Of a stretch of 42,317 bases of DNA, positions 19,403 through 31,651 are shown one piece after another (position 1 is the stretch's first letter; every line of letters starts with the position of its first letter). A program made the translations under genes and the position numbers. Source of the stretch: Chloroflexi bacterium RBG_16_64_43 (GTDB taxonomy: Bacteria; Chloroflexota; Anaerolineae; Anaerolineales; RBG-16-64-43). The stretch lies in the NCBI GenBank assembly GCA_001796965.1, contig MGOA01000050.1:1-42317 (forward strand). The letters run 5' to 3'. Below the pieces are notes generated by a model. It searched no databases. It had not been told where the DNA came from and was given only the letters and a program-made list of their open reading frames with translations.

Positions 19403-20521
19403 TTATGGGTAGAGCGCTTCCTGCAGCAGGTTACGGATCGCATCTGGGATCGGCAGTTGGACGTCGGCGCCGGCGGGCGTGATCCAACCGTAGCACTGAG
19501 TGGGGCTGACGATACGATAGCGGCGCACGTTGTCGGGCCGCACGCTGGTGGCCATGGTCACGAAGGGAGCCAGATCCTGGAAGGAAAGATCCATGTCGAC
19601 GAATTGGCGAAGCTGGTCGAAGAAGCCCGGCATATTGGCGAGCGCGTTGAGGCTGAGCAGCCGGTTGGCAAATCCAAGAATCACTTCTTGCTGACGCCGC
19701 TCCCGGTCGAAATCACTGGTGGAATATCGCGAGCGGACATACCACAGGGCGGTAGCGCCGTCCATATGCACCACGCCGGGATACACCGTGTAGTCACCGT
19801 ACCCCTTGCGCTTGTCGGTCAGCGTTTGCGCCACGGGCACGTCTATGCCGCCGAGCGAATCGACCAGCCCGGTGAAACCGCTGAAGTTCACCCGCACCCA
19901 GTGATCCACCCGCAGGCCGAAGTTGTACATCATCGTGTCTTGGAACAACCCGAAACTCCCGCCCTCGTAGCCCAGCGTGTAGCCGATGGGGAACGCCACG
20001 TTGATGCGCTGCATGGTGTAAGCGGGTATGTACACATACAGATCGCGGGGGAACGAAATGAGCGTGGCCGTTCCGCGCGAGCGGTTGAGCGAAAGGATCA
20101 TGATCGTGTCGGTGCGATACGAGCTACCGAACGGCCGCATGTCGCTGCCCAGCAAGGCAATGTTGAGCACCTCGTCGCTCAACTCGAAGGGCTGGGCCGG
20201 GGTGGGGATGGCCGTGGGTGCAGGATAGATCGGCCCGGCGTAGGGCGACCAGGGCGGCACGCCAACATAGGGCGTGGGCGGCACGAGCGGCTCGCCAGCG
20301 CCGGGTGTTTCCTGCAGAAAGGGCGCCAGTTGAGTGGCCAGGGAAGGCAGGAAGGGCGTGGGCGTGCTTGAGGCGGGCAGGAAAGGCGTAGGTGAAATCG
20401 AGTTGCCGGGGTTCCCTCCAAAGAACATGGAGGCCCCGTTACCCAATAGCATGCAGCTCAGGCTGAGGGCGCTGGCCGCACCAAATGCGGCGGCGATGAG
20501 GGGACGTCGTCCAGCAGACAT
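19403..20521 (-). CDS. LytR-CpsA-Psr (LCP) family cell-envelope phosphotransferase
   Basis: LCP core: NIALLGSDMR...RTDTIMILSLNRSRGTATLISFPRDLYVYIP ... VDHWVRVNFSGFTGLVDSLGGIDV. An N-terminal TM is followed by a Pro/Thr linker with a duplicated TPTPFLP. ATG 20521 is preceded by AAGGAAGG. Upstream alternatives are 20569 and 20743. Confidence 0.85.
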   Translation of the reverse strand: MSAGRRPLIAAAFGAASALSLSCMLLGNGASMFFGGNPGNSISPTPFLPASSTPTPFLPSLATQLAPFLQETPGAGEPLVPPTPYVGVPPWSPYAGPIYPAPTAIPTPAQPFELSDEVLNIALLGSDMRPFGSSYRTDTIMILSLNRSRGTATLISFPRDLYVYIPAYTMQRINVAFPIGYTLGYEGGSFGLFQDTMMYNFGLRVDHWVRVNFSGFTGLVDSLGGIDVPVAQTLTDKRKGYGDYTVYPGVVHMDGATALWYVRSRYSTSDFDRERRQQEVILGFANRLLSLNALANMPGFFDQLRQFVDMDLSFQDLAPFVTMATSVRPDNVRRYRIVSPTQCYGWITPAGADVQLPIPDAIRNLLQEALYP

Positions 20522-20548
20522 TCGCCTTCCTTGAGCAACTGAAGATGT

Positions 20549-20585
20549 GCCCTGCGCGCGCAGGGCCATCTTAAGGACGATTATA
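20549..20585 (-). promoter_or_regulatory. Candidate -10 (TATAAT) plus an 18-nt perfect palindrome in the LCP 5' region
   Basis: The + strand attata (20580-20585) reads TATAAT on the minus strand. The palindrome gccctgcgc|gcgcagggc lies at 20549-20566, between the predicted TSS and ATG 20521. Confidence 0.35.
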
Positions 20586-20658
20586 CGCCCGCCGGAGTTC
20601 CAAGCGGCGATTCGCGGGGCGAGGGGCTGCCGACGAATGCCAGAGTACGCGGGACGGC

Positions 20659-23049
20659 TCAGGTGTACGCCCCGCTTTGAGGCGCAGCCAGAGGCACTTC
20701 GATGGAGAAGGTGCTGCCCTGGCCGGCCTGGCTCTCGACCCAAATACGGCCGCCGACCGATTGGGCCAACTCGTGGGCCACCGCCATGCCGATTCCCTTT
20801 TCGCCCAGGCCGGCCAGCGGAGCGCCTGTGCCGCGCGCGATCGAATCAAACACCATCGGGTAATCGTCTGGGGCGATGCCCGCCCCGCCGTCGTCGACGG
20901 AGACGAGCAGGGCCGAGGGCGGTCCGCCCTCGGGCATGCGCAGATGCGCGCGCACTCCCACCTCGCTGTGGGGCGGGGTGGCCAGCACCGCATTGCGCAC
21001 CAGGTGATAAAGCAATTGGCGCACGCAGGCCCGATCGGCCTCGGCCTCGAAGGTCGTCTCGGGCAATTCGAGGTGAATGCTCAACTCGCGTTCGCGGATC
21101 AATTCGCTGGAGGCCGTCAGGGCCGCGTCGACCTCCTCGGCCACTTCCAGCGGTCCCCAATCGACCGGGGCTTCGGAACGGGCGAACGCGGCCAGGCTTT
21201 CCAGGTCCTGCGCCAAGGCTTCGGCCTGATAGGCCCGATCGCGCAGGTGCTCGAGCGGCTGGCGTTGCATCGAGCCCAGCAACGCCGCGCCCTGACCGGC
21301 CACAAGTTCAGAGTCGCTGCGTACCGAAAGAACGGCCTTGAGCAGTTCGCGGGCGAGGGAGAGGACCACTTGTTCGCCGAGAAGCCCGCCGCGGGCCGGG
21401 GGCACCGCACGCGCCGGTTCATCCCACCCCACGCCCTGGCGCTCCAATTCCTTTTCGGCACGGTCGAGCGCCATGCGCAGCCGCTGGACCTCTTCGCTAT
21501 GTTCGGACATAAACTCGTGCAGCACTTCACCCGAAGGAGCGGGGATGGGCTGACCCGCCAAACTGGCCCGCAGCGAGGCAATCACCTCATCCCGATTGAG
21601 CAGAACCTGAGAGAGGGCTTCTTCCAGGTGGGTGACTTCGGCCTCCATCTCCTTGAGGCTTTCCGGTTGCGTCCGCTGGGTAAGCTGCACCTCCAGCGAG
21701 TCGGCCCGCCGGCGTTCGGCTTGCAGGTCCTCTTGCGCCTGTCGCAGGCGGAAGCCGAAGTCGGAGTTCTCCTCGCGCAAATTGGCCAACTCGGCATCCG
21801 ACATCAGCGCCCGCGATCGGGGCGGTTCGCGCGGCGCCTCGGGCAGCAACTGTGAGGGGGCCAGGTCGGTGACAAGCGGCGCGGCGAAAGCGCCCAATGT
21901 GCGCTGATCCTCGCTGCTCCATTCGCGTCCGCTGTAGGGTGATAGGACAAGCAAAGCCGTGCTGGCATTCGTGCCGGCGGCCAACGGCATCAGCATCGCC
22001 GGGCCGGGTTGGGGCAATCCCACCGCTTCGGCAACACGCTTGTAGTCGGCTGGCAGGTCGGCTGCAGAATAGGTGTGGACGCCGTCTTGTGCGAGTTGGG
22101 CAATGATGCTTCCACTCTGGTCGCCCGGCAGGAATGCGCCGAGCAAGGGTTGCGAGCGCACCAGATCGTATCCGGCGGTGATATGAAGACCGGCCCCGTC
22201 TTCCGCTCGCACGAGGGTCAGGGCCACATCTGCATTGAGTGTGCGGGCGGCCCAAAAGGCAAGATCTTCGGCCATGGAACGGGCTGCCATGGGCGCGCCG
22301 GCCACACCCGGGGTTTCTGGTGGCGCGGGTTCGTCGCTCGTCGCAGGGGTGAGCCGCACCGCGACAGCATGTGCCGGGCGGCTGGCCAACGCTGCGATCC
22401 ACACAATGAACAGTGGATAGACGATCACTTCCGCCGCACGTAGCAGCGTGGCGAAATCCTCATCTGGTCGGCGCAGCACGCCTTGCACTATCGCAGCCGC
22501 CAGGAGCAGGCCGATGGCCGTCAGTCGCAGGCCGCGCAGCGCGGACCGGCGCAGGAACAGGAACGCCGCGCCGATCACCGCGGCCAGCGCGAGGCTTGCA
22601 TCCCACATGGGTGCTAGCACGGTGGTGTTGAATCGCAGTTCCGGGAGCTGGAGGGCCGTGGAGTAAAGCAGCACGCTGGAGGCCAGAGCCAGCACCAGCG
22701 CCAGCCCGGCGGCGGTGAAGGCGATCAGCGCAGCCAGCCGCCCGCTCGGCTGGAGCACCAGCCAAACCAGGAGCACGGCCGAGATGACACTCGTGGCGCG
22801 ATCGGCATTGCCGAGCGCCGTTCGGGCAAACGTACCGCCGTCCCACGCGGCCCACACCGCGAGCGCCGCCAGCACGATGCGCAAAGTGACCATCACGCCC
22901 AGGCCTAGCGCGAGGCGCGTCCACAGCTCGCGGCCCAAGTGTGACCGCCACGTCGCCGCCAAGATCAGGCCCAAGACCAGCGCGAGGAGCAGAACCAGAT
23001 TGGCCGGCGGCAGGCTGAGCGCGTCGAGGATGCCGGGGGATGTGCTCAT
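20659..23049 (-). CDS. Polytopic membrane GAF-domain histidine-kinase-like protein (H-box His apparently missing)
   Basis: Roughly six N-terminal hydrophobic segments. A GAF-like block follows (ARTLNADVALTLVRAEDGAGLHITAGYD...), then an ~80-aa charged coiled coil. The DHp-like helix pair reads LSLARELLKAVLSV...DLESLAAFAR. The HATPase_c is intact: N box LVRNAV, G1 DDGGAGI, F VFD, G2 GEKGIGMAV, then GGRIWVESQAGQGSTFSIEVPL. Confidence 0.8.
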   Translation of the reverse strand: MSTSPGILDALSLPPANLVLLLALVLGLILAATWRSHLGRELWTRLALGLGVMVTLRIVLAALAVWAAWDGGTFARTALGNADRATSVISAVLLVWLVLQPSGRLAALIAFTAAGLALVLALASSVLLYSTALQLPELRFNTTVLAPMWDASLALAAVIGAAFLFLRRSALRGLRLTAIGLLLAAAIVQGVLRRPDEDFATLLRAAEVIVYPLFIVWIAALASRPAHAVAVRLTPATSDEPAPPETPGVAGAPMAARSMAEDLAFWAARTLNADVALTLVRAEDGAGLHITAGYDLVRSQPLLGAFLPGDQSGSIIAQLAQDGVHTYSAADLPADYKRVAEAVGLPQPGPAMLMPLAAGTNASTALLVLSPYSGREWSSEDQRTLGAFAAPLVTDLAPSQLLPEAPREPPRSRALMSDAELANLREENSDFGFRLRQAQEDLQAERRRADSLEVQLTQRTQPESLKEMEAEVTHLEEALSQVLLNRDEVIASLRASLAGQPIPAPSGEVLHEFMSEHSEEVQRLRMALDRAEKELERQGVGWDEPARAVPPARGGLLGEQVVLSLARELLKAVLSVRSDSELVAGQGAALLGSMQRQPLEHLRDRAYQAEALAQDLESLAAFARSEAPVDWGPLEVAEEVDAALTASSELIRERELSIHLELPETTFEAEADRACVRQLLYHLVRNAVLATPPHSEVGVRAHLRMPEGGPPSALLVSVDDGGAGIAPDDYPMVFDSIARGTGAPLAGLGEKGIGMAVAHELAQSVGGRIWVESQAGQGSTFSIEVPLAAPQSGAYT

Positions 23050-23088: not shown

Positions 23089-25569
23089 CTATCTTATCAT
23101 GGGCAAGCGCGCGAGCGCCCACAACCCCTCGAAGGAGGCATCGCGCACGGCCGCATCCGGATCGGCCAGACTTTGCTTGAGGACCCGCATGCGCTCGGGA
23201 AAGGCGGCCTGCCGCCAAGCCTCGGCCGCGGCCAAACGCTCGCGCGGATTGCCTTCGGCCAGAGCGCGTTCGAGCACCGCCATGGCTCCGGCACCGCTGG
23301 GCACTCCGCTTCCGCGGGCGGCGGCGAAGGCCACCAGCCATGGCAGGTCCGCGGCATCCGCAGGCTTGGCCGGCGGCGGACCTTCGGGAGTGGCTTCCAG
23401 AGCCGTGGCCGCTGCGGTTCGCACGACCCATTCCTTATCGTCACGCGAGACCTTGCGCAGCACATCCACCACCCACGGCTCGTTGACTTGCGCCAGCCCG
23501 CCGATTGACGTTCTGCGGACCAAGGCGTCCGAGTCGGTCGCAGCCTCGCGCAGAATTGGGTATCCCTCCTCGCGGTCAAACGACAAGCCGACGCTCGCCG
23601 CGCGGCGGGCGTCTTCCTCGCCGGTGAGCAGCGTGCGGCCGAGTGCCTCGGCCGCCTCCTTGCGGGCCATGCGCCCGAGGCCCCTGGCCGCCGCCCAGCG
23701 CACCTCACGGTTGGCCGAGTCGAGCAGATCATCCAGCCCGGCGATGGCGCCGCCGTCGCGCAGCGCGCCGAGCCCAAGCGCCCCCAGCACTTGCCCCTCG
23801 GCGTCATCCGCCGCCTCGAGCATCTGACGGAACAAGACCAGAATGCCCGGATCGAGCGAGGCGACCAGTGCGCATGCACAGCGAGCACGCAGCGGGGAGG
23901 GCCAGCGTTCATTGCGAACCACCCCCGCCAGACGACGCAACACGTCTGATCTCCATTCGGCTTCGCCCGCATTGCGCAGCCACGCGGCGCATTCCAGTAA
24001 CGCATTGGCTTCGCGCACCCATGGCACAAGGCGCAACGTTGTGTCGGTTCCGCTGGAGGTCGGTGGGCTCTCGGAGGAGGTCGTCAGGCGGTCGCGAGTG
24101 AGAGGCCCGAGATCGAGCACATCGCCGGCGAGCGAGAGCGCCACCTCGGTGAAGGCCGTGCTGGGCAAGGCGAGCAGCGCATCGGTTGAGCCGACCCGCT
24201 CGCTGCGTGCCAGGTGGTGCGCGGCCAGTCGGCCCGCGATGGAAGGATGGGCAAAAGCCAGGCGGCCCGCCAGTGTGGCGCGCCAAATGCCGCGGGCAAT
24301 CAGTTCCGCCGACACCGCGCTGATGTCCACCGCCGGGCGGGTCTCGATCCCGGTGGCCGACGAAAGGGCGCGCTCGCCATCCGCGCGGCTGAGCACGGCC
24401 ACTCCGGCGGCGACCATCGTCCCCGCCAACTGCTTGAGGCCCGGGACCCAGGCTGGTTCGCACTGCCGGCGCACCAGCGCGTCGAGGTCGCTGGACGAGG
24501 TCTTGCCCAGCGCGTCGCCTGCGCAGGCCGACCACAGACGCAAAGTGATCTCGAGCGGCGAAGTGAGCGCAGCCGGAACGGACAACCAGCCGCGCAAGAT
24601 GTCGAGCGATGGCCATTCGGCGGAGGCCGAGGCACCGGCGATGTGTTTCTTCCAACGGTCTACCCACCGGCCTACGAAGGCTTCGTGTTTGGAGTCGGCC
24701 CAGGGCGCGACGGCGGCGCAGGTGAAGCCCATCATCTCCCACAGCGGGAGGCCGCGAAAGCCGTCGGCGACGATGATCCTCAATCGAGGCGATTGGCGCA
24801 GCAGGACGCCCAGCCACTCGCGCACACGCAGGGCGTGTGCGTCGGAGAGCTCGTCGAAGCCGTCCAGCAGGAGCCAGGGGGCCTCGCCGGTCAGCCCGCG
24901 CTGGACGAAAGCCGGAAGGCCGGGCAGCGTGCGGCGCGAGCAGTGGGGGCGCATGGCTTGCACCAGGACATCAATGGTGGGCGTCTTGCCCGGCGCCGGT
25001 TCCAGGTCTGCCGCATGCGCGAGCAACAATGACGTTGGCAGGTCCTTGCGCTCGATGAACGCGGCCAACTTGCCGGCGCGCAACCCGAGCACGATCGCGG
25101 CCAGCGCCACCGTGCGCCCGCTGCCCGGCCGCCCGCACAAGACCACATGCTGGCGGCCGCGGACGACGACCTCGAGCGGCGCCTGGGGCCAGCCGTACAG
25201 GGCGCCAAGCTGCGGCCAATCCGGCGTGAAAGGTAACACTTGCGGCAGGTCGCTCTCGGCCTCCTGCAAGGGGTCCGAGCGGGCTGGTGCGCGCAGAACC
25301 GTCGGCGGAACGAGGATCTCGTCGAGCAAGAAGAGCGGGCCAGCCAGGTGGCACGTCTGCGCCCAACGCACCAGATCGCGCGAATAGGATTGCGCCGTAC
25401 CGGTCGCCAAGATTTCGCGCCACGCGGCCCATTGTGCGCGCAGTGCGCCGAACGTGCGCAGCATGCCTGCCCGGCGGCTCACGACGAGCGCCGTGAGCAA
25501 GGCGCCCAGTGCCGCGCCGGCTGTGAAAGAGGCGGTGTCGAATTGCCAGCGCGATCCGAACAGACCCAT
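23089..25569 (-). CDS. Membrane-anchored NACHT-type STAND NTPase with C-terminal HEAT-repeat array
   Basis: N-terminal TM (FTAGAALGALLTALVV). Walker A reads GRPGSGRT (25134-25111, Lys replaced by Arg). Walker B is PWLLLDGFDELSD, followed by RIIVADGFRG. The C-terminal third contains repeated HEAT/PBS-lyase-like units (VRWAAARGLGRM, DARRAASVGL, ALVRRTSIGGLAQV, VVRTAAATALEA, AVRDASFEGLW). Confidence 0.8.
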   Translation of the reverse strand: MGLFGSRWQFDTASFTAGAALGALLTALVVSRRAGMLRTFGALRAQWAAWREILATGTAQSYSRDLVRWAQTCHLAGPLFLLDEILVPPTVLRAPARSDPLQEAESDLPQVLPFTPDWPQLGALYGWPQAPLEVVVRGRQHVVLCGRPGSGRTVALAAIVLGLRAGKLAAFIERKDLPTSLLLAHAADLEPAPGKTPTIDVLVQAMRPHCSRRTLPGLPAFVQRGLTGEAPWLLLDGFDELSDAHALRVREWLGVLLRQSPRLRIIVADGFRGLPLWEMMGFTCAAVAPWADSKHEAFVGRWVDRWKKHIAGASASAEWPSLDILRGWLSVPAALTSPLEITLRLWSACAGDALGKTSSSDLDALVRRQCEPAWVPGLKQLAGTMVAAGVAVLSRADGERALSSATGIETRPAVDISAVSAELIARGIWRATLAGRLAFAHPSIAGRLAAHHLARSERVGSTDALLALPSTAFTEVALSLAGDVLDLGPLTRDRLTTSSESPPTSSGTDTTLRLVPWVREANALLECAAWLRNAGEAEWRSDVLRRLAGVVRNERWPSPLRARCACALVASLDPGILVLFRQMLEAADDAEGQVLGALGLGALRDGGAIAGLDDLLDSANREVRWAAARGLGRMARKEAAEALGRTLLTGEEDARRAASVGLSFDREEGYPILREAATDSDALVRRTSIGGLAQVNEPWVVDVLRKVSRDDKEWVVRTAAATALEATPEGPPPAKPADAADLPWLVAFAAARGSGVPSGAGAMAVLERALAEGNPRERLAAAEAWRQAAFPERMRVLKQSLADPDAAVRDASFEGLWALARLPMIR

Positions 25570-25572
25570 GGG

Positions 25573-26274
25573 CTACCCCGTGTAAAGAATGCGGCCGCAA
25601 TTGCCGCACATCACGATCTCCTCGCCGGTGCGTGCGGCATCGACGCGCGCCTGGGAGGGGGCGACGCCGCAGCGGCCGCAGGTCGATCCATCCAGTCGTG
25701 CCACGGCCGTTCCGCGTCGTGTGCGGCGCAAGTTATCGTAGGTCCCTTGATCCTCGGGGGTGATGATCGCCACGGCTGCTTCGCGCTGGGCCAGCAAGCG
25801 CTCGACCGTCGCTGCCAACTCAGCTCGTTCTTGGTGCAGGTCGCCTTCCTGTTGCCCGCGAACCGCCTCGACTGCCTCGAGCGCAGCGCGCGCCGCGGCG
25901 TGGACTCCTTCCGCCTCATCTTGCGCGACCATTCCCTGCAATTGGCGATCTTCAAGTACGCCCAGGAAGCGCTTGAGCGAAGCCGCTTCGTTCTCGAGGT
26001 CTTTGAGCTCCTTTGGGCTGTGAACTTCGCCGCTGTATAACAGCCGTTCAGTCTCGCGGAATTTGCTCTGTTGCGAGACGACCTCACCTTCCGCTTTGAC
26101 TAGCGCGCGGCGGGCATCTTGCAGCGCCGCCTGCGCCGTGCTTTCTTGCTGGCGGGCGGCTTCCACTTCGGGCGCGACGGCCAGCAGGGCTTCGATCTCG
26201 CCCAGGCGAGTGCGCGCCCCATCAAGTTCGTGGTCGAGCAACTGCAGACGGAAAAGATTCGAGACGCGACTCAT
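25573..26274 (-). CDS. COG1579/DUF164 coiled-coil protein with C-terminal C4 zinc ribbon
   Basis: LFRLQLLDHELDGARTRLGEIE..., SGEVHSPKELKDLENEAASLKR, YDNLRRTRRGTAVARL, and a C-terminal CGRCG...CGNCGRILY. I prefer ATG 26274 over GTG 26280 because the -10 box ends at 26283. The stop lies 3 nt from the NACHT ATG. Confidence 0.85.
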   Translation of the reverse strand: MSRVSNLFRLQLLDHELDGARTRLGEIEALLAVAPEVEAARQQESTAQAALQDARRALVKAEGEVVSQQSKFRETERLLYSGEVHSPKELKDLENEAASLKRFLGVLEDRQLQGMVAQDEAEGVHAAARAALEAVEAVRGQQEGDLHQERAELAATVERLLAQREAAVAIITPEDQGTYDNLRRTRRGTAVARLDGSTCGRCGVAPSQARVDAARTGEEIVMCGNCGRILYTG

Positions 26275-26282
26275 GAGCACGG

Positions 26283-26310
26283 ATTATAGGGAATTCCCCC
26301 CCAGCGTCAA
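26283..26310 (-). promoter_or_regulatory. Near-consensus sigma70 promoter of the COG1579-NACHT-kinase operon, with a palindrome in the spacer
   Basis: Minus-strand read: TTGACG (26310-26305), 16-nt spacer ctggggGGGAATTCCC, then TATAAT (26288-26283). The ATG is 8 nt after the -10, so the mRNA is leaderless or nearly so. Confidence 0.55.
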
Positions 26311-26333
26311 CTCAACCAACCCGGCGTGCGCGA

Positions 26334-26389
26334 CAAGAATTGCCCAAGAATTCTGTTGGGGGAATTGGGGCAAGAGGCGATGTTAGAAT
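26334..26389 (+). promoter_or_regulatory. Extended -10 promoter (TGtTAGAAT) for the MFS gene, preceded by GAATT-core repeats
   Basis: TG at 26381-26382 and TAGAAT at 26384-26389. The A of ATG 26396 is the 7th nt after the -10, so a leaderless transcript is predicted. CAAGAATT occurs at 26334-26341 and 26345-26352 (11-bp phase), and GGGGGAATTGGGG at 26358-26370. Confidence 0.45.
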
Positions 26390-26395
26390 CGCGGG

Positions 26396-27685
26396 ATGCA
26401 AATCGATCACGGAGTCGGCGAGCAGGGAATCCGTCGCGACTTCCGTTTGGGCGTGATCAACGGCGCCCTCTTCGGGTTGGCCGAGACGCTGACGGATCCG
26501 GCGCTGGTCCTGGTGGCCTTTGTGGTGGCCCTGGGTGGTTCGCCGCTGTTGGTCGGGCTGGCGGCACCGATTCGCAATGCTGGATGGTACCTACCTCAAC
26601 TCCTGATTTCTGGTCGGACGCAATCGGCACCACGCACGCTGCCGATCTATGCTCGGGTCGCCGTCTTGCGTCTGGCAGGGTGGGGAGTGATCGCGGTGAC
26701 GCCGCTCCTGTTGGGGCGGCTTTCGCCCGGCGCTGTGTTGGCCGTCTTCCTAGTGGCCTTCTTTGTGGCTGAGAGCGCGGCAGGTGTGGCCGGGCTGCCC
26801 TTCCTGGAAGTCGTTTCCAAAGTCATTCCTCCCGGGCGGCGAGGCGAGTTCTTTGGCTGGAGGTTGACCCTGGCTGGAGCAGCCGGCATTGTTGCCGGGT
26901 GGCTGGTGCACGAATTGCTGCGCGACGGCGGTGCGGTCGGCCTGCCGCTCAACTACAGCGCGTTATTCTTCCTGGCTTTTCTGGCATACGTCGTGGCAAT
27001 GACCGTTTTCTTCTCGGTCGGCGAGCCGGCCAAAGCCCACACGGTGCGCGGCATCGCGCTGAGCGAGCAACTGCGTTCGGCGCGCGGGCTGTGGGCGCAC
27101 GATTCGAACCTGCGGCGCTTCCTGTATATGCGACTGGCGCTCATTGTCACCGGTGCCGCAGTCCCTTTCTACACGCTGTACGCCCAACGTGAACTCGGCC
27201 TGCCAGTTGAGGAAATCGGCGTGTATCTCACCGTGTACACCGGCACCTCGCTGGTGGCCAACCTGGCCATCGGCCGGCTGACCCGGCGGCTCGGCGACCG
27301 CCCTATCATGCGCTTGTCGGGCTGGGCCAGCCTGTTCATGTCGCTCGTGGTTATCGCGCTGGGGGTCTTCGCAGCGCGGGCCGGGGTGCGCTGGTTGAAC
27401 GCGGGGATGATCGTTGTTTACGCGCTGCTCGGCGTGCGCGAAGCGGGTATTGGCATTGCCGGGATGAGCATGCTGCTCGAGTTGGCCGGCGAGAAGGGGC
27501 GGTCGCTGTATCTCGGTCTGGCCAATTCGGTGATGGGCTTGGGCCTCCTGGCCTCTGCCGCCAGCGGGGTGCTCGTCGAGCTGGCTGGCTCGCTGGCATT
27601 GTTTGTTGTGGCCGCGTTAGCCAGCGCCGGCGCGCTGTGGTTTATCGAGAGGATTCGCGATCCAGCGATCCAGGAGGCAGCTTGA
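26396..27685 (+). CDS. MFS transporter
   Basis: 429 aa with hydrophobic segments throughout (about 12 by eye) and typical MFS loop motifs (GRLTRRLGDRPIM). Confidence 0.85.
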   Translation: MQIDHGVGEQGIRRDFRLGVINGALFGLAETLTDPALVLVAFVVALGGSPLLVGLAAPIRNAGWYLPQLLISGRTQSAPRTLPIYARVAVLRLAGWGVIAVTPLLLGRLSPGAVLAVFLVAFFVAESAAGVAGLPFLEVVSKVIPPGRRGEFFGWRLTLAGAAGIVAGWLVHELLRDGGAVGLPLNYSALFFLAFLAYVVAMTVFFSVGEPAKAHTVRGIALSEQLRSARGLWAHDSNLRRFLYMRLALIVTGAAVPFYTLYAQRELGLPVEEIGVYLTVYTGTSLVANLAIGRLTRRLGDRPIMRLSGWASLFMSLVVIALGVFAARAGVRWLNAGMIVVYALLGVREAGIGIAGMSMLLELAGEKGRSLYLGLANSVMGLGLLASAASGVLVELAGSLALFVVAALASAGALWFIERIRDPAIQEAA

Positions 27686-27736: not shown

Positions 27737-27850
27737 CCGCGGAATTCTCGCTGAGCGGAGAGGCGGGCACGGGGCCGCATGCGCCCGCTGCTTCATCCTC
27801 TCCCTTTCACCGGCGGGAGATACACGGATGATATGGAAGGAAGGACACGC

Positions 27851-29095
27851 ATGAAGCGCCGCCAACTCTGGACGCGTCTCGCACTTCTGACACCCATTGC
27901 CATCAGCCTGGCGTGCAGCTTGCCCGAGATCATCGCGCCGATCGCCACCCCTGGATCGGCGGCCGAGACACCTGGGCAGGAGGCCACGCTCATTCCTGTC
28001 GACCCAACGTCGGCCGCAGGCACTGAGACCGCGCCCGGCACAACGCCTGAGGCCACGCTGGTCCCGACGGCTGAATTACCCACCGAGTCGCCTCTGGCAC
28101 CGGTCGTATACCCGGTGGGGCCCGACAACTTCTCTGAGGACATCAACCCGCTGACCGGGTTGCGCGTGGCCGAGCAGGCGCTGCTTGAGCGCCGGCCGCT
28201 GGCGATCAAGGTGTCGAATTTCCCGCGCAGCGCCCGTCCGCAGGCAGGGCTCTCGCAGGCCGATCTAATCTGGGAGTACTACACCGAATCTGGCAGTACC
28301 CGATTCCTGGCAATGTACTACGGCCAGGAAGCGAGCAAGGTGGGACCCATCCGTTCGGCCCGCGTGGAGGATACACGCATCGTCCCGCTCTACAACGCCA
28401 TCCTCGTCCATGTTCAGGCTTACCAGGATGTGTGGGATCAGATGTACTCCTCCGGGGTGGATTTCATAAACGAATTCCCTGCCTCGTGCCCGGCCATTTG
28501 CCGCGACGCGAATGAGAAGATCAAAGAGAACTCCGCCTTCGGCAACACGGTGGAACTGACGAAGTATGCCGGCATCGTTCGCCTTCTGCGCGATCGCCCC
28601 AACCTGAACGGGATGGTGTTCGACTCGGCCACGCCCGCCGGGGGAGGTGATGCGGCATCGTTGTGGGTACGCTTTTCGGCGGCGGCCCTGGGGGAGTGGC
28701 GCTACGATGCGGTCTCCGATTCCTACTTACGCTCTTCGGAGAGCGAGTCCGGCGCGATGGTGGCGCTCAACGACCGCGTGACCGGAAGACAACTCTCGGT
28801 AGCCAACGCGGTCATTCTGTTCGTGCCGTTCAACCGCTACGTCGGCAAGACGACCACCGCTGAAATGTGGGATCTCATCATCAGCGGCGAGGGCAAGGCC
28901 GTCTTCTTCCGCGATGGCAAGGTGTTCGAGGGCACCTGGAAACGAGTCTCGGCCAGCCAACCGCTCCAATTGCTCGGTCCATCGGGCTCGCTCTTCGCCC
29001 TCCAGCCAGGAAGCACGTGGATCGGGGTCATCGGCAAGAACTCGGGCGTAACGCGAGATGCCACGCAATGGCAGTTCCGCATGGCATGGCCATGA
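27851..29095 (+). CDS. DUF3048 (YerB-like) lipoprotein, paralog 1
   Basis: ATG 27851 follows GGAAGGAAGGA. Lipobox IAISLAC, then a Pro/Thr/Ala/Glu linker. DUF3048 core: INPLTGLRVAEQALLERRPLAIKVSNFPRSARPQAGLSQADLIWEYYTESGSTRF...VGPIRSAR. Confidence 0.85.
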   Translation: MKRRQLWTRLALLTPIAISLACSLPEIIAPIATPGSAAETPGQEATLIPVDPTSAAGTETAPGTTPEATLVPTAELPTESPLAPVVYPVGPDNFSEDINPLTGLRVAEQALLERRPLAIKVSNFPRSARPQAGLSQADLIWEYYTESGSTRFLAMYYGQEASKVGPIRSARVEDTRIVPLYNAILVHVQAYQDVWDQMYSSGVDFINEFPASCPAICRDANEKIKENSAFGNTVELTKYAGIVRLLRDRPNLNGMVFDSATPAGGGDAASLWVRFSAAALGEWRYDAVSDSYLRSSESESGAMVALNDRVTGRQLSVANAVILFVPFNRYVGKTTTAEMWDLIISGEGKAVFFRDGKVFEGTWKRVSASQPLQLLGPSGSLFALQPGSTWIGVIGKNSGVTRDATQWQFRMAWP

Positions 29096-29167
29096 TCGAC
29101 GGCTTGGGAGGATCGTGAGCCAGATGGAGTCTCGGTGACAACCGTTCAAAAGATACGTCGCCCGCAC

Positions 29168-30373
29168 ATGTCGCGCTGGCCTGTGCGGGCGACGGGCATT
29201 GCGTTGCTGGCGGCCACCCTCGGGTGTCAGGGGCTGACGCTGAGCCTTGCGCCCTCTCCCGCGGCGCCGACATCGACTCTGGCGCCTGGGCGGGCGGCGA
29301 CCACCTTACCGCAGCCCGACCCGCAGGCAACTCTCGGGTCACCTCCCACTGGGTCCAACCCGGGCGCAACTCTCGAACCGACCGCCACCGAAGGCGCGCT
29401 ACCCGTTGCCACGAACGCTGCGCTGGCGATCAACCCGCTCACCGGCCTGCCAGTGGCGGACGCCAGCCTGATCCAGCGCCGCCCGATCGGCATCAAGGTC
29501 TCGAACTATCCCCGCACCGCCAGGCCGCAGGCCGGCCTTTCGTTCGCCGACCTGCTTTATGAGTTCTATCAGGAAGCAGGCGATACACGCTTCCATGCCG
29601 TCTTTCTGAGCAACGATGTCGAGAAAGTCGGGCCAATTCGTTCCGGGCGCAAAGTAGATGCGAACCTGCAGCAGCTCTACCAGTCGCTGCTGATCTTCAA
29701 CGCCGCCGATTACCGGGTGTGGGAATACTTCCACGAAACGCCTTCAAGGGAGTACATCATCCCCGAAGGCCCCGCGCCCTGCCCGGCCCTGTGCCGCGAT
29801 TCGTCGCAAGCGCAGGTCAACAGCCTGTATGCCAACACGGCGGCGTTGCGCAAGGCCGCGGATGCGCTGAAGATCCCGAATATTGCGCCGGATCTGAGCG
29901 GCATGACCTTCGATACCGCGCCGCCAACAGCCGGCGCCCCCGCATCCAGTGTGCTGGTGCGCTTCTATACGGATAACGCGCGCGCCGAGTGGCGCTACGA
30001 CCCGGCCACGCAGAAATACTCCCGCTGGTCGGAGACCTCCAGTGGGGGCATGGCACCGCTCAAGGATCGCTTGACCGGCCAGCAATTGACCGTCTCCAAT
30101 TTGGCGGTGGTCTTTGTTACCTTCTATCGCCCCCAGCGGGTCGAAATCTACGACGTGATGTTGTATGGCACCGGGCGGGCGGTGCTGTTTCGCGACGGCG
30201 TGGCAACCGAGGGCGGCTGGTTGGTGGCCAACCCGGACCAACCGCTGCAGTTCTCCAGTTCATCCGGCCCGTTTGCCTTCCATCCCGGGGTGACCTGGAT
30301 CGCATTGATCGGTGAGAATTCCACCTTCACCCAGTTGGACGGGAATTGGCGATTCGAGTTCGACTTCCCATAG
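29168..30373 (+). CDS. DUF3048 (YerB-like) lipoprotein, paralog 2
   Basis: ATG 29168 (GTG 29135 is possible). Lipobox LAATLGC. Core: INPLTGLPVADASLIQRRPIGIKVSNYPRTARPQAGLSFADLLYEFYQEAGDTRF...VGPIRSGR. Confidence 0.85.
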   Translation: MSRWPVRATGIALLAATLGCQGLTLSLAPSPAAPTSTLAPGRAATTLPQPDPQATLGSPPTGSNPGATLEPTATEGALPVATNAALAINPLTGLPVADASLIQRRPIGIKVSNYPRTARPQAGLSFADLLYEFYQEAGDTRFHAVFLSNDVEKVGPIRSGRKVDANLQQLYQSLLIFNAADYRVWEYFHETPSREYIIPEGPAPCPALCRDSSQAQVNSLYANTAALRKAADALKIPNIAPDLSGMTFDTAPPTAGAPASSVLVRFYTDNARAEWRYDPATQKYSRWSETSSGGMAPLKDRLTGQQLTVSNLAVVFVTFYRPQRVEIYDVMLYGTGRAVLFRDGVATEGGWLVANPDQPLQFSSSSGPFAFHPGVTWIALIGENSTFTQLDGNWRFEFDFP

Positions 30374-30421
30374 CGGGAGATGCCTCACCTTGCTGAAGCA
30401 TTCAGACCAGGAGGCGGTGCG

Positions 30422-31651
30422 ATGGCCACTTCACGGACATTGACTAGCCGAGGGATCGTGTTGCTGGCGCTGAGTGCAGTGTTGATCGGATGCACGCAGC
30501 CACTGGCACTGCTGCCCGGCGAACAGGGTATCGCGCCGGCGGAAGCGACCCCGACTGCGGCCGAAGCGCCTGTTTCTGAACCGCCAACCTTAACGCCTTC
30601 CCTCGCGCCTGAGCTGCCCGAGGCGACACCCACCGCAACGGAAGTCCCGACAGCCACCGCCTCGCCGACTCCTGCACTGCTGGGGCCGGCCTTTGCTCCG
30701 GGGATCGATCCTCTAACCGGACTTGCGGTGGATGACCCCGCCTTGCTCGATCGGCGGCCGATGGGTATCAAGGTCTCGAACTTCCCGCGCAGCTTGCGCC
30801 CGCACACGGGGCTCTCTCTGGCCGACCTGGTGTTCGAGTACTACACCGAGGAAGGCATGACCCGCTTCCTGGCGTTCTACCTTGGGCACGACGCCCCGAA
30901 GGTCGGCCCGATGCGCTCGGTGCGCCTGGTGGATGGCCAGCTGGTGAAAATGTACAACGGCGTTCTGGGCTTCGTCGGCGGCGACCCGTTCGTGCTTGGC
31001 CGCGTGATCGGGATGATCGGTTCGTCGCGGGCGTTCAGCCAGTCGCCCTCCACCTGCCCGGCCATCTGCAGAGAGGGCAACGGTAACGTCAACAGCGTCT
31101 TCGCCGATACGGCGGAGCTGACCGTCCTGGCCAAATCGCAGGGGGCGCAAGACCTGAACGGCATGGTCTTCTCGAGTGAACCGCCGCTCGCGGGCGTGCC
31201 CGGGACTCGTGTGCACGTCCAGTTCTCAAACGGGGCCCGTGCCGAGTGGCGCTGGAGCAGCGAACTTGGCGCTTATCAGCGTTGGTCTGAAGATGTACTG
31301 GAAGGCCGGATCGTGATGGAGCCTCTGACCGACCGCCTCACTGAAGCGCAGATCCAATCCCCCAATGTGGTCGTGGCCTACGCCTGGTATGCGCGCGGAT
31401 CGGGCAACGAGAAGTACAACATCGAGTTCGTGTATCGCAAGCGCGGCCGGGCCCAGGTGTTCCGCGACGGGATGATGGTCGAGGGTTTTTGGCTGGCCGA
31501 GGACGCAATCAGCCCGCTGCAGTTCATCGACGGCGCGGGTGACCCCCTGCCGCTTAAGCCGGGAGCCACGTGGATCGAGGTGGTGGGCGAGAATTCAACT
31601 CCCACCGAGACGGCGCCCGGCGAGTGGAACGTGCGCTTCCGTTTCCCCTAG
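30422..31651 (+). CDS. DUF3048 (YerB-like) lipoprotein, paralog 3
   Basis: ATG 30422 lies 7 nt after AGGAGG (30409-30414); ATG 30380 is possible. Lipobox SAVLIGC. Core: IDPLTGLAVDDPALLDRRPMGIKVSNFPRSLRPHTGLSLADLVFEYYTEEGMTRF...VGPMRSVR. Confidence 0.85.
   Translation: MATSRTLTSRGIVLLALSAVLIGCTQPLALLPGEQGIAPAEATPTAAEAPVSEPPTLTPSLAPELPEATPTATEVPTATASPTPALLGPAFAPGIDPLTGLAVDDPALLDRRPMGIKVSNFPRSLRPHTGLSLADLVFEYYTEEGMTRFLAFYLGHDAPKVGPMRSVRLVDGQLVKMYNGVLGFVGGDPFVLGRVIGMIGSSRAFSQSPSTCPAICREGNGNVNSVFADTAELTVLAKSQGAQDLNGMVFSSEPPLAGVPGTRVHVQFSNGARAEWRWSSELGAYQRWSEDVLEGRIVMEPLTDRLTEAQIQSPNVVVAYAWYARGSGNEKYNIEFVYRKRGRAQVFRDGMMVEGFWLAEDAISPLQFIDGAGDPLPLKPGATWIEVVGENSTPTETAPGEWNVRFRFP

Follow-up and report, generated by a model that had tools for sequence, protein, structure and literature searches.

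Among P-loop NTPases the Walker A lysine is invariant according to the textbooks, and changing it to arginine is the standard means of inactivation. What, then, is to be made of a NACHT protein in which arginine is the natural residue at this position? The question is raised by a gene at 23089 to 25569, on the minus strand, of the window, by which we mean the whole 42,317-nucleotide stretch analyzed here (contig MGOA01000050.1 of Chloroflexi bacterium RBG_16_64_43). Sequence matches and a structural model confirm that the product is a STAND NTPase with a NACHT fold and C-terminal HEAT repeats. A first-pass annotation, made from the sequence alone, had proposed that the arginine marks a locked or regulatory STAND protein. 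We favor another reading, to which we assign a probability of roughly 55%: the protein would be part of an effector-less, membrane-tethered unit of NACHT-HEAT and COG1579 proteins, in which selection preserves a charge for holding the phosphates rather than fast hydrolysis, in which arginine is tolerated, and which has a housekeeping or envelope role in its lineage. The gene and its parts are as follows.

23089..25569, minus strand: NACHT-HEAT gene (P0001), from the open reading frame and its translation; 826 amino acids, a probably membrane-anchored NACHT-HEAT protein
25477..25536, minus strand: hydrophobic N-terminal helix, residues 12-31, probable single-pass anchor (N-out, C-in), from the model helix and Kyte-Doolittle hydropathy
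25180..25473, minus strand: residues 33-130, with a long helix (33-72), a conserved motif around His74 and an extended Pro-rich segment, from the model and the family alignment
24040..25179, minus strand: NACHT module (nucleotide-binding, helical and winged-helix domains), residues 131-510, from Pfam, Foldseek and profile alignment to NLRC4
25111..25134, minus strand: Walker A motif G-R-P-G-S-G-R-T, residues 146-153, read directly from the DNA, with the Arg152 codon cgc at 25114-25116
24847..24876, minus strand: Walker B motif W-L-L-L-D-G-F-D-E-L, residues 232-241, with the D[GAS]hDE signature of NACHT proteins
24217..24255, minus strand: winged-helix motif F-A-H-P...L-A-A, residues 439-451, from the second domain of the profile-to-NLRC4 alignment
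23092..24039, minus strand: HEAT repeat solenoid (PBS-lyase/alphaRep type), residues 511-826, from Pfam, the PDB and the model

The nucleotide pocket and its setting

The minus-strand DNA from 25134 to 25111 reads ggg cgg ccg ggc agc ggg cgc acg and is translated as G-R-P-G-S-G-R-T (residues 146 to 153), with Arg152, encoded by cgc at 25116 to 25114, at the normal lysine position of GK[ST]. A NACHT-module profile aligns this Walker A motif to the GKS/GKT of NLRC4 and of midasin AAA domains, and the Walker B motif to L-L-D-G-Y-N-E of NLRC4. The same comparison places F-x-H-P...L-A-A opposite the winged-helix F-F-H...Y-T-A-G of NLRC4, so that His441 is the equivalent of the NLRC4 histidine, a residue that contacts the bound nucleotide. 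At residues 268 to 273, after beta-4, the place of the sensor-1 arginine in many NACHT proteins, the family has no conserved arginine, and the NLRC4 alignment is weak there. The Walker B residues 236 to 240 (D-G-F-D-E) fit the signature D[GAS]hDE, which sets NACHT proteins apart from other STAND clades (bioRxiv 10.1101/2022.07.19.500537).

Family-wide conservation was read from relatives found in an exhaustive HMMER search. At E below 1e-30 this search returned 516 cluster representatives, a large family that matches the query in length and architecture. The alignment used here has 156 members, namely 149 full-family representatives from the best 150 matches, the query and six close orthologs. 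Within it, G149, G151, D236 and D239 are invariant, position 153 is invariably Ser or Thr, and E240 is present in 147 members.

An AlphaFold2 model of the protein, built on 119 relatives, reached a mean pLDDT (the predicted local confidence score) of 91.3 and a pTM (the predicted global fold score) of 0.90. Its best Foldseek matches are NLRP3, NOD2 and NLRC4, with E values from 3.5e-8 to 1e-6 and a probability of 1.00. Pfam matches to NACHT and AAA_22 begin at residues 137 to 142; the NACHT model PF05729, which covers residues 142 to 267, scores 24.4 bits in hmmscan against a cut-off of 26.7, and 27.1 bits over the same region in a six-frame search of the genome, and a precomputed PF05729 match is present in all six close orthologs. 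Because the structure matches NLR proteins, three motifs align to NLRC4 and the D-G-F-D-E signature is present, the fold, the P-loop register and the NACHT assignment hold. Judged by sequence, membership of the NACHT clade is a matter of descent that holds although the functional hallmark, the lysine, has been replaced by arginine.

The C-terminal arm consists entirely of helical repeats in the model. It scores 72.9 bits with HEAT_2 (2.7e-20; cut-off, 27.7) and 40.1 bits with HEAT (2.4e-10; cut-off, 23.5) in Pfam, and it matches alphaRep and HEAT chains in the PDB, the former with E values down to 4e-15.

At the other end, residues 12 to 31 form a helix in the model, and its Kyte-Doolittle mean over 19 residues is 1.76 compared with a classic limit of 1.6; the family median is 1.68, and 89 of the 156 relatives exceed 1.6 at the same N-terminal place. 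Hydropathy and the model together make this helix a probable membrane anchor, and the Arg-rich sequence that follows it suggests an N-out, C-in topology. A 40-residue helix (residues 33 to 72) comes next and leads into an extended Pro-rich segment that runs to the first NTPase strand, predicted at a pLDDT of about 80 to 97. Searches with Pfam, NCBIfam and PADLOC models gave no match in the N-terminal part, and the model indicates that residues 30 to 140 are not a separate effector domain. Within this region, His74 (codon 25350-25348) is invariant in 156 of 156 relatives, and Q71, L82 and P89 are nearly so. His74 is more conserved than the Walker A lysine and lies in a pre-NTPase motif at residues 66 to 100 with the consensus A-Q-x-x-H-L-A-x-x-L-F-S-L-D-E-I.

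The first-pass annotation had described much of this architecture. Its P-loop, at amino acids 146 to 153 with the arginine codon at 25116-25114, agrees exactly with the DNA, and the register that it proposed to check by profile alignment is upheld by the start of the Pfam matches, by the NLRC4 and midasin alignment and by the invariant G149, G151 and [ST]153. The calls of a NACHT NTPase (Foldseek NLR matches, motif alignment to NLRC4 and Walker B signature), of an intact Walker B motif (D236 and D239) and of a HEAT-repeat arm (HEAT_2 and PDB matches) are borne out. The single transmembrane helix that it called is probable, and its view that the N terminus matches no recognizable effector domain is consistent with the domain searches and with the predicted structure of residues 30 to 140, a check it had also proposed, which gave a long helix and an extended Pro-rich segment.

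Lysine and arginine across the family

The Walker A column of the 156-member alignment holds lysine in 138 sequences and arginine in 18, and no other residue. All six close orthologs (75 to 92% identity) have arginine, and two metagenomic proteins are among the arginine bearers at 75 to 77% identity. All six species of the genus to which the window belongs carry arginine, encoded by CGC in five and CGG in one; the sister genera in the same taxonomic family have lysine, encoded by AAG. Of the best 80 GTDB reference loci, 79 have lysine; from the remaining one the motif could not be recovered. Arginine is a minority state, found in roughly 5 to 10% of lineages. The survey of orthologs at this position, suggested in the first-pass annotation, gave a divided answer: the wider family is mostly lysine, and every close ortholog has arginine. 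Because all close orthologs share it, the arginine is a fixed lineage trait and not an error or a strain mutation; because CGC and CGG are at least two steps from AAR, the change is old.

In a tree of the 156 members, calculated with the Walker A column removed, the column requires 12 state changes, all forced by well-supported branches, and none of 500 label shuffles gave as few. Every arginine lineage is nested among lysine sequences, which indicates that the switch from lysine to arginine occurred independently at least 12 times in the family. Six other arginine lineages show the same arginine in nonidentical members from independent assemblies. Within the genus, pairwise ratios of nonsynonymous to synonymous substitution (dN/dS) are 0.12 to 0.17 for the whole gene, 0.13 to 0.23 for the NTPase domain and 0.08 to 0.18 for the HEAT arm. 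These ratios are low, and it follows that the arginine-bearing protein is maintained by purifying selection.

Composition may provide part of the background to these switches. The window is about 66% G+C, and the protein has 80 arginines and 13 lysines. K/(K+R) is lower in the arginine protein than in its lysine sister in 10 of 11 sister pairs; across 12 sister pairs, 63 positions have arginine in the arginine lineage and lysine in the sister, compared with 40 in the reverse direction. These data fit a mutational drift from lysine to arginine that the family tolerates even in the P-loop.

The COG1579 partner and the distribution of the family

The genes on either side of the NACHT-HEAT gene are the following.

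25573..26274, minus strand: COG1579-type gene, 233 amino acids from an ATG at 26274, coiled-coil hairpin and C4 zinc ribbon, directly upstream of the NACHT-HEAT gene
20659..23049, minus strand: histidine-kinase-like gene, 796 amino acids, HATPase_c and a weak GAF match, 39 nucleotides after the NACHT-HEAT stop

The upstream protein scores 61.1 bits against CT398_CC (cut-off, 27); its Zn_ribbon_9 score of 22.5 bits falls short of the 29.1 cut-off, and the four cysteines of its zinc ribbon (CxxC...CxxC) are invariant in 14 COG1579 orthologs. Its stop codon, TAG at 25575-25573, lies 3 nucleotides before the ATG of the NACHT-HEAT gene, and five other loci with unambiguous gene ends show gaps of -4 to +7 nucleotides; the NACHT-HEAT gene is probably translationally coupled to it. 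In a first sample, 11 of 12 loci have a COG1579 gene immediately upstream on the same strand; in a second, 78 of 80 do, and the contigs of the remaining two end before a partner could appear. Families differ in the genes that flank the pair on either side, yet the pairing is kept, and we infer that the pair is a functional unit. The COG1579 gene is single-copy and also occurs alone, in related genomes that have no NACHT-HEAT gene. A complex prediction for the COG1579 protein (233 amino acids) and residues 62 to 826 of the NACHT-HEAT protein scored 0.00, a value that counts neither for nor against binding.

Sigma-54 was considered as a general logic for the COG1579 pair and was rejected, since two complete genomes that carry the pair gave no Sigma54_DBD match. 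The genome of the window, which is incomplete, gave none either. The only match in a genome of the same genus (G304, contig C4, 460247-460676) is split over two frames and may reflect a frameshift or a broken gene.

Beyond the pair, the surroundings vary. The window's family has an MFS gene on the upstream side of the module and the histidine-kinase-like gene on the downstream side. The latter was seen only in loci of that family (f1; genera g1, g174 and g175) and is absent from the other loci; its product is only 27 to 29% identical between genera of the family, and the 796-residue protein of the window has no HisKA match. In another family of Anaerolineales, a gene of roughly 496 codons with Beta-lactamase2 and PG_binding_4 domains stands just upstream of the COG1579 gene on the same strand (L013:9630-11120, L014:9872-11362 and equivalents), and a divergent proline dehydrogenase gene lies beyond it. 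The Beta-lactamase2/PG_binding_4 neighbor hints at an envelope context for the module. The window also carries an LCP (LytR-CpsA-Psr) gene at 19403-20743 and, beside the module, tandem DUF3048-like genes (27779-31651), of which the other genera of the family also have two or three copies (L121-L126).

Contigs from a sediment metatranscriptome run are 90 to 95% alike over most of the NACHT-HEAT gene (23711-25322) and over the COG1579 gene (25525-26400). They are a weak hint that the genes of a congener are present in RNA libraries; contigs cannot show transcription, none bridges the gene junction, and carry-over of DNA is possible. The small share of words matched in other sequencing runs is no evidence of habitat.

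The NACHT-HEAT gene is single-copy in the genome of the window, as is the family in the genomes checked for copy number. Of the genomes sampled, all 19 from one family and 17 of 18 from the window's own family contain it, as do most other families of the order. In our samples it was confined to the class Anaerolineae, almost entirely to the order Anaerolineales; roughly 270 genomes sampled from the rest of the phylum gave no example. A search with a 12-row alignment of the NACHT module found relatives in 370 species-level genomes; the best 80 are metagenome-assembled genomes of Anaerolineales, Anaerolineae or Chloroflexota, apart from one 3.4-kb contig filed under Sideroxydans. That contig (L076) carries a COG1579 and NACHT-HEAT pair of the Anaerolineales type and has probably been mis-binned rather than transferred. 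Identity tracks taxonomy, at 81 to 92% within the genus, 34 to 39% within the family and about 30% within the order, and the family is apparently inherited vertically.

Competing readings and comparison with known systems

The reading that we prefer is as follows. A single N-terminal helix would hold the protein at the cytoplasmic side of the membrane. The nucleotide-bound NACHT module would work as a conformational or oligomerization switch, or as a scaffold, and the HEAT solenoid would be a binding arm that, together with the COG1579 partner, serves as input or output. Selection would favor a positive charge able to hold the phosphates rather than fast hydrolysis; arginine would not mark a special state, dead or locked, but would be tolerated, probably at the cost of slower turnover. 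Tolerance of arginine across the family is suggested by the repeated switches, by the acceptance of lysine and arginine only and by purifying selection on an arginine-bearing gene. A distribution this conserved speaks for a housekeeping or envelope-linked signaling role specific to the lineage, and not for mobile phage defense. A bolder and more tentative version, which we regard as possible but less probable, is that the pair is a core, non-immune, NLR-like module for housekeeping signaling or scaffolding in filamentous Anaerolineales, in which the nucleotide is a structural cofactor or a slow timer and lysine and arginine are interchangeable.

Several observations weigh against the preferred reading. 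The hydropathy of the putative anchor is barely over the threshold, the COG1579 partnership is read from gene order, with physical contact between the proteins as a further step of interpretation, and the link to compositional drift draws on 11 pairs. That binding matters and hydrolysis does not is likewise something we infer from patterns of conservation, and the retention of the second Walker B acidic residues (D239 and E240) in the arginine lineages is unexpected if catalysis is irrelevant. By the lengths printed on the tree, end branches are longer in the arginine lineages than in their lysine sisters in 9 of 11 pairs and about equal in the other two, which may reflect faster evolution, a compositional shift or mildly relaxed constraint. 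In the one bacterial NACHT protein tested, bNACHT01, the change K115R abolished phage defense (bioRxiv 10.1101/2022.07.19.500537), and arginine is therefore not generally tolerated in NACHT proteins.

An alternative, and one we consider unlikely, is that the arginine cripples hydrolysis in this lineage and leaves a nucleotide-locked or purely regulatory STAND protein, unlike its cycling lysine relatives. Walker A changes from lysine to arginine often keep binding and lose hydrolysis, as in RecA K72R. The stem branch of the genus is long (0.85), identity to its sister genera is just 34 to 39%, and the tendency of arginine lineages to longer branches could be read in the same way; however, the branch of the lysine sister P0009 is similarly long (0.79). 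At least 12 independent origins, with no other residue accepted, point to near-equivalence of the two residues rather than to a new function each time, and the arginine genus retains the same architecture and partner gene and is likewise under purifying selection. Nor did a comparison of the 12 arginine and lysine sister pairs reveal a convincing compensating residue: the weak signals of covariation, such as a change to arginine at position 301 in seven pairs and from alanine to serine at position 347 in five, are not distinguishable from chance or composition. The first-pass proposal of a locked or regulatory state as a peculiarity of this protein is not supported by this evidence.

Less probable again is an antiphage or abortive-infection NLR, in which the HEAT arm would sense a phage protein, the NACHT module would oligomerize and the clustered transmembrane helices would damage the membrane. 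Sensor repeats, a NACHT module and an N-terminal membrane element fit such a scheme, and bacterial NACHT proteins, some with transmembrane or HEAT parts, do defend against phage (bioRxiv 10.1101/2022.07.19.500537). However, a patchy and mobile distribution would be expected of a defense gene, and this one is single-copy, nearly universal in its order and fixed in its place behind a widespread single-copy COG1579 gene, with an identity that follows taxonomy. Diversifying selection is not visible in the HEAT arm, where dN/dS is low, and the window protein matches none of the PADLOC defense NACHT models. The effector domain that this reading leads one to expect (nuclease, protease, TIR and the like) was not found with Pfam, NCBIfam or PADLOC models, and the Walker A arginine inactivated the defense NACHT in which it was tested.

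We regard as very improbable a degenerating pseudo-NTPase, in a family that has lost its need for nucleotide binding and keeps the domain only as structural support for the HEAT arm. Several other residues are better conserved than the Walker A lysine, and the sensor-1 place has no conserved arginine, as such decay would allow; the column nonetheless accepts only lysine or arginine, and the glycines, the Ser/Thr, the Walker B aspartates and the winged-helix histidine are kept among members that are about 30% identical, a pattern that speaks for a functional nucleotide pocket. The source of the window is a 72%-complete metagenome-assembled genome, but a sequencing or assembly error or a strain-specific mutation is rejected as virtually excluded, given the same arginine in six species genomes and several metagenomic proteins, the codon distance from AAR, and contigs at least 99% alike from two further runs of one study, possibly the source sample, that cover the codon, one with no differences and the other with a single difference at an unlisted position.

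Within the paper library searched, there was no description of the NACHT-HEAT family or of its COG1579 pairing and nothing usable on natural Walker A arginines; comparison can be made with systems that share its parts. Like the NACHT-clade STAND proteins NLRC4, NLRP3, NOD2 and bNACHT, the window protein has nucleotide-binding, helical and winged-helix domains in the same order followed by a repeat sensor, with the P-loop in register, D[GAS]hDE and the winged-helix histidine. It differs from them in its Walker A arginine, in a transmembrane helix with no effector or adaptor domain, in HEAT instead of leucine-rich repeats and in being the product of a core, single-copy gene with a fixed COG1579 neighbor, and its Pfam score is borderline (24.4 or 27.1 against 26.7). 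It is thus unusual for a NACHT STAND protein in three respects: an arginine that recurs and is under selection, the lack of any effector other than a membrane helix and an invariant COG1579 partner in a lineage-wide gene. With bNACHT01 and the antiphage bacterial NACHT proteins (Kibby et al., bioRxiv 10.1101/2022.07.19.500537) it has the NACHT module in common, and some of those clades have HEAT or transmembrane parts; unlike bNACHT01, whose function is lost with K115R, the window family has an arginine that is fixed and recurrent, is conserved in its lineage and matches no defense model. The repeated fixation of arginine under purifying selection amounts to a natural experiment: do STAND and NLR switches need hydrolysis, or is nucleotide binding enough? 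Conservation across an order also suggests that NLR-like proteins of bacteria are not all immune sensors. If the tentative core, non-immune version holds, the family would offer a natural series of lysine and arginine forms with which to ask what hydrolysis is for in STAND switches, and the first functional partner for the enigmatic COG1579 family.

The upstream partner shares the coiled-coil hairpin and C4 zinc ribbon of the COG1579/DUF164 proteins HP0958/FlgZ of Helicobacter pylori, CT398/CdsZ of Chlamydia trachomatis and MSMEG_4306 of Mycobacterium smegmatis. Relatives of this family act with sigma-54 and with flagellar or type III secretion components, their usual neighbor is NIF3/DUF34, and their mechanism has been called mysterious (PMC3372290, PMC8469502). 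In contrast, the fixed neighbor here is the NACHT-HEAT gene, and sigma-54 was not found in the two complete pair-bearing genomes; the strict pairing provides a testable partner for this widespread family. A further likeness is to cyanobacterial proteins in which NACHT is followed by HEAT repeats of the PBS-lyase type (HEAT_PBS), a lead that comes from language-model clusters. The nearest clusters include one with NACHT in 87% and HEAT_2 in 56%; compared with those cyanobacterial proteins, the transmembrane anchor and the COG1579 pairing are known here only from the window family.

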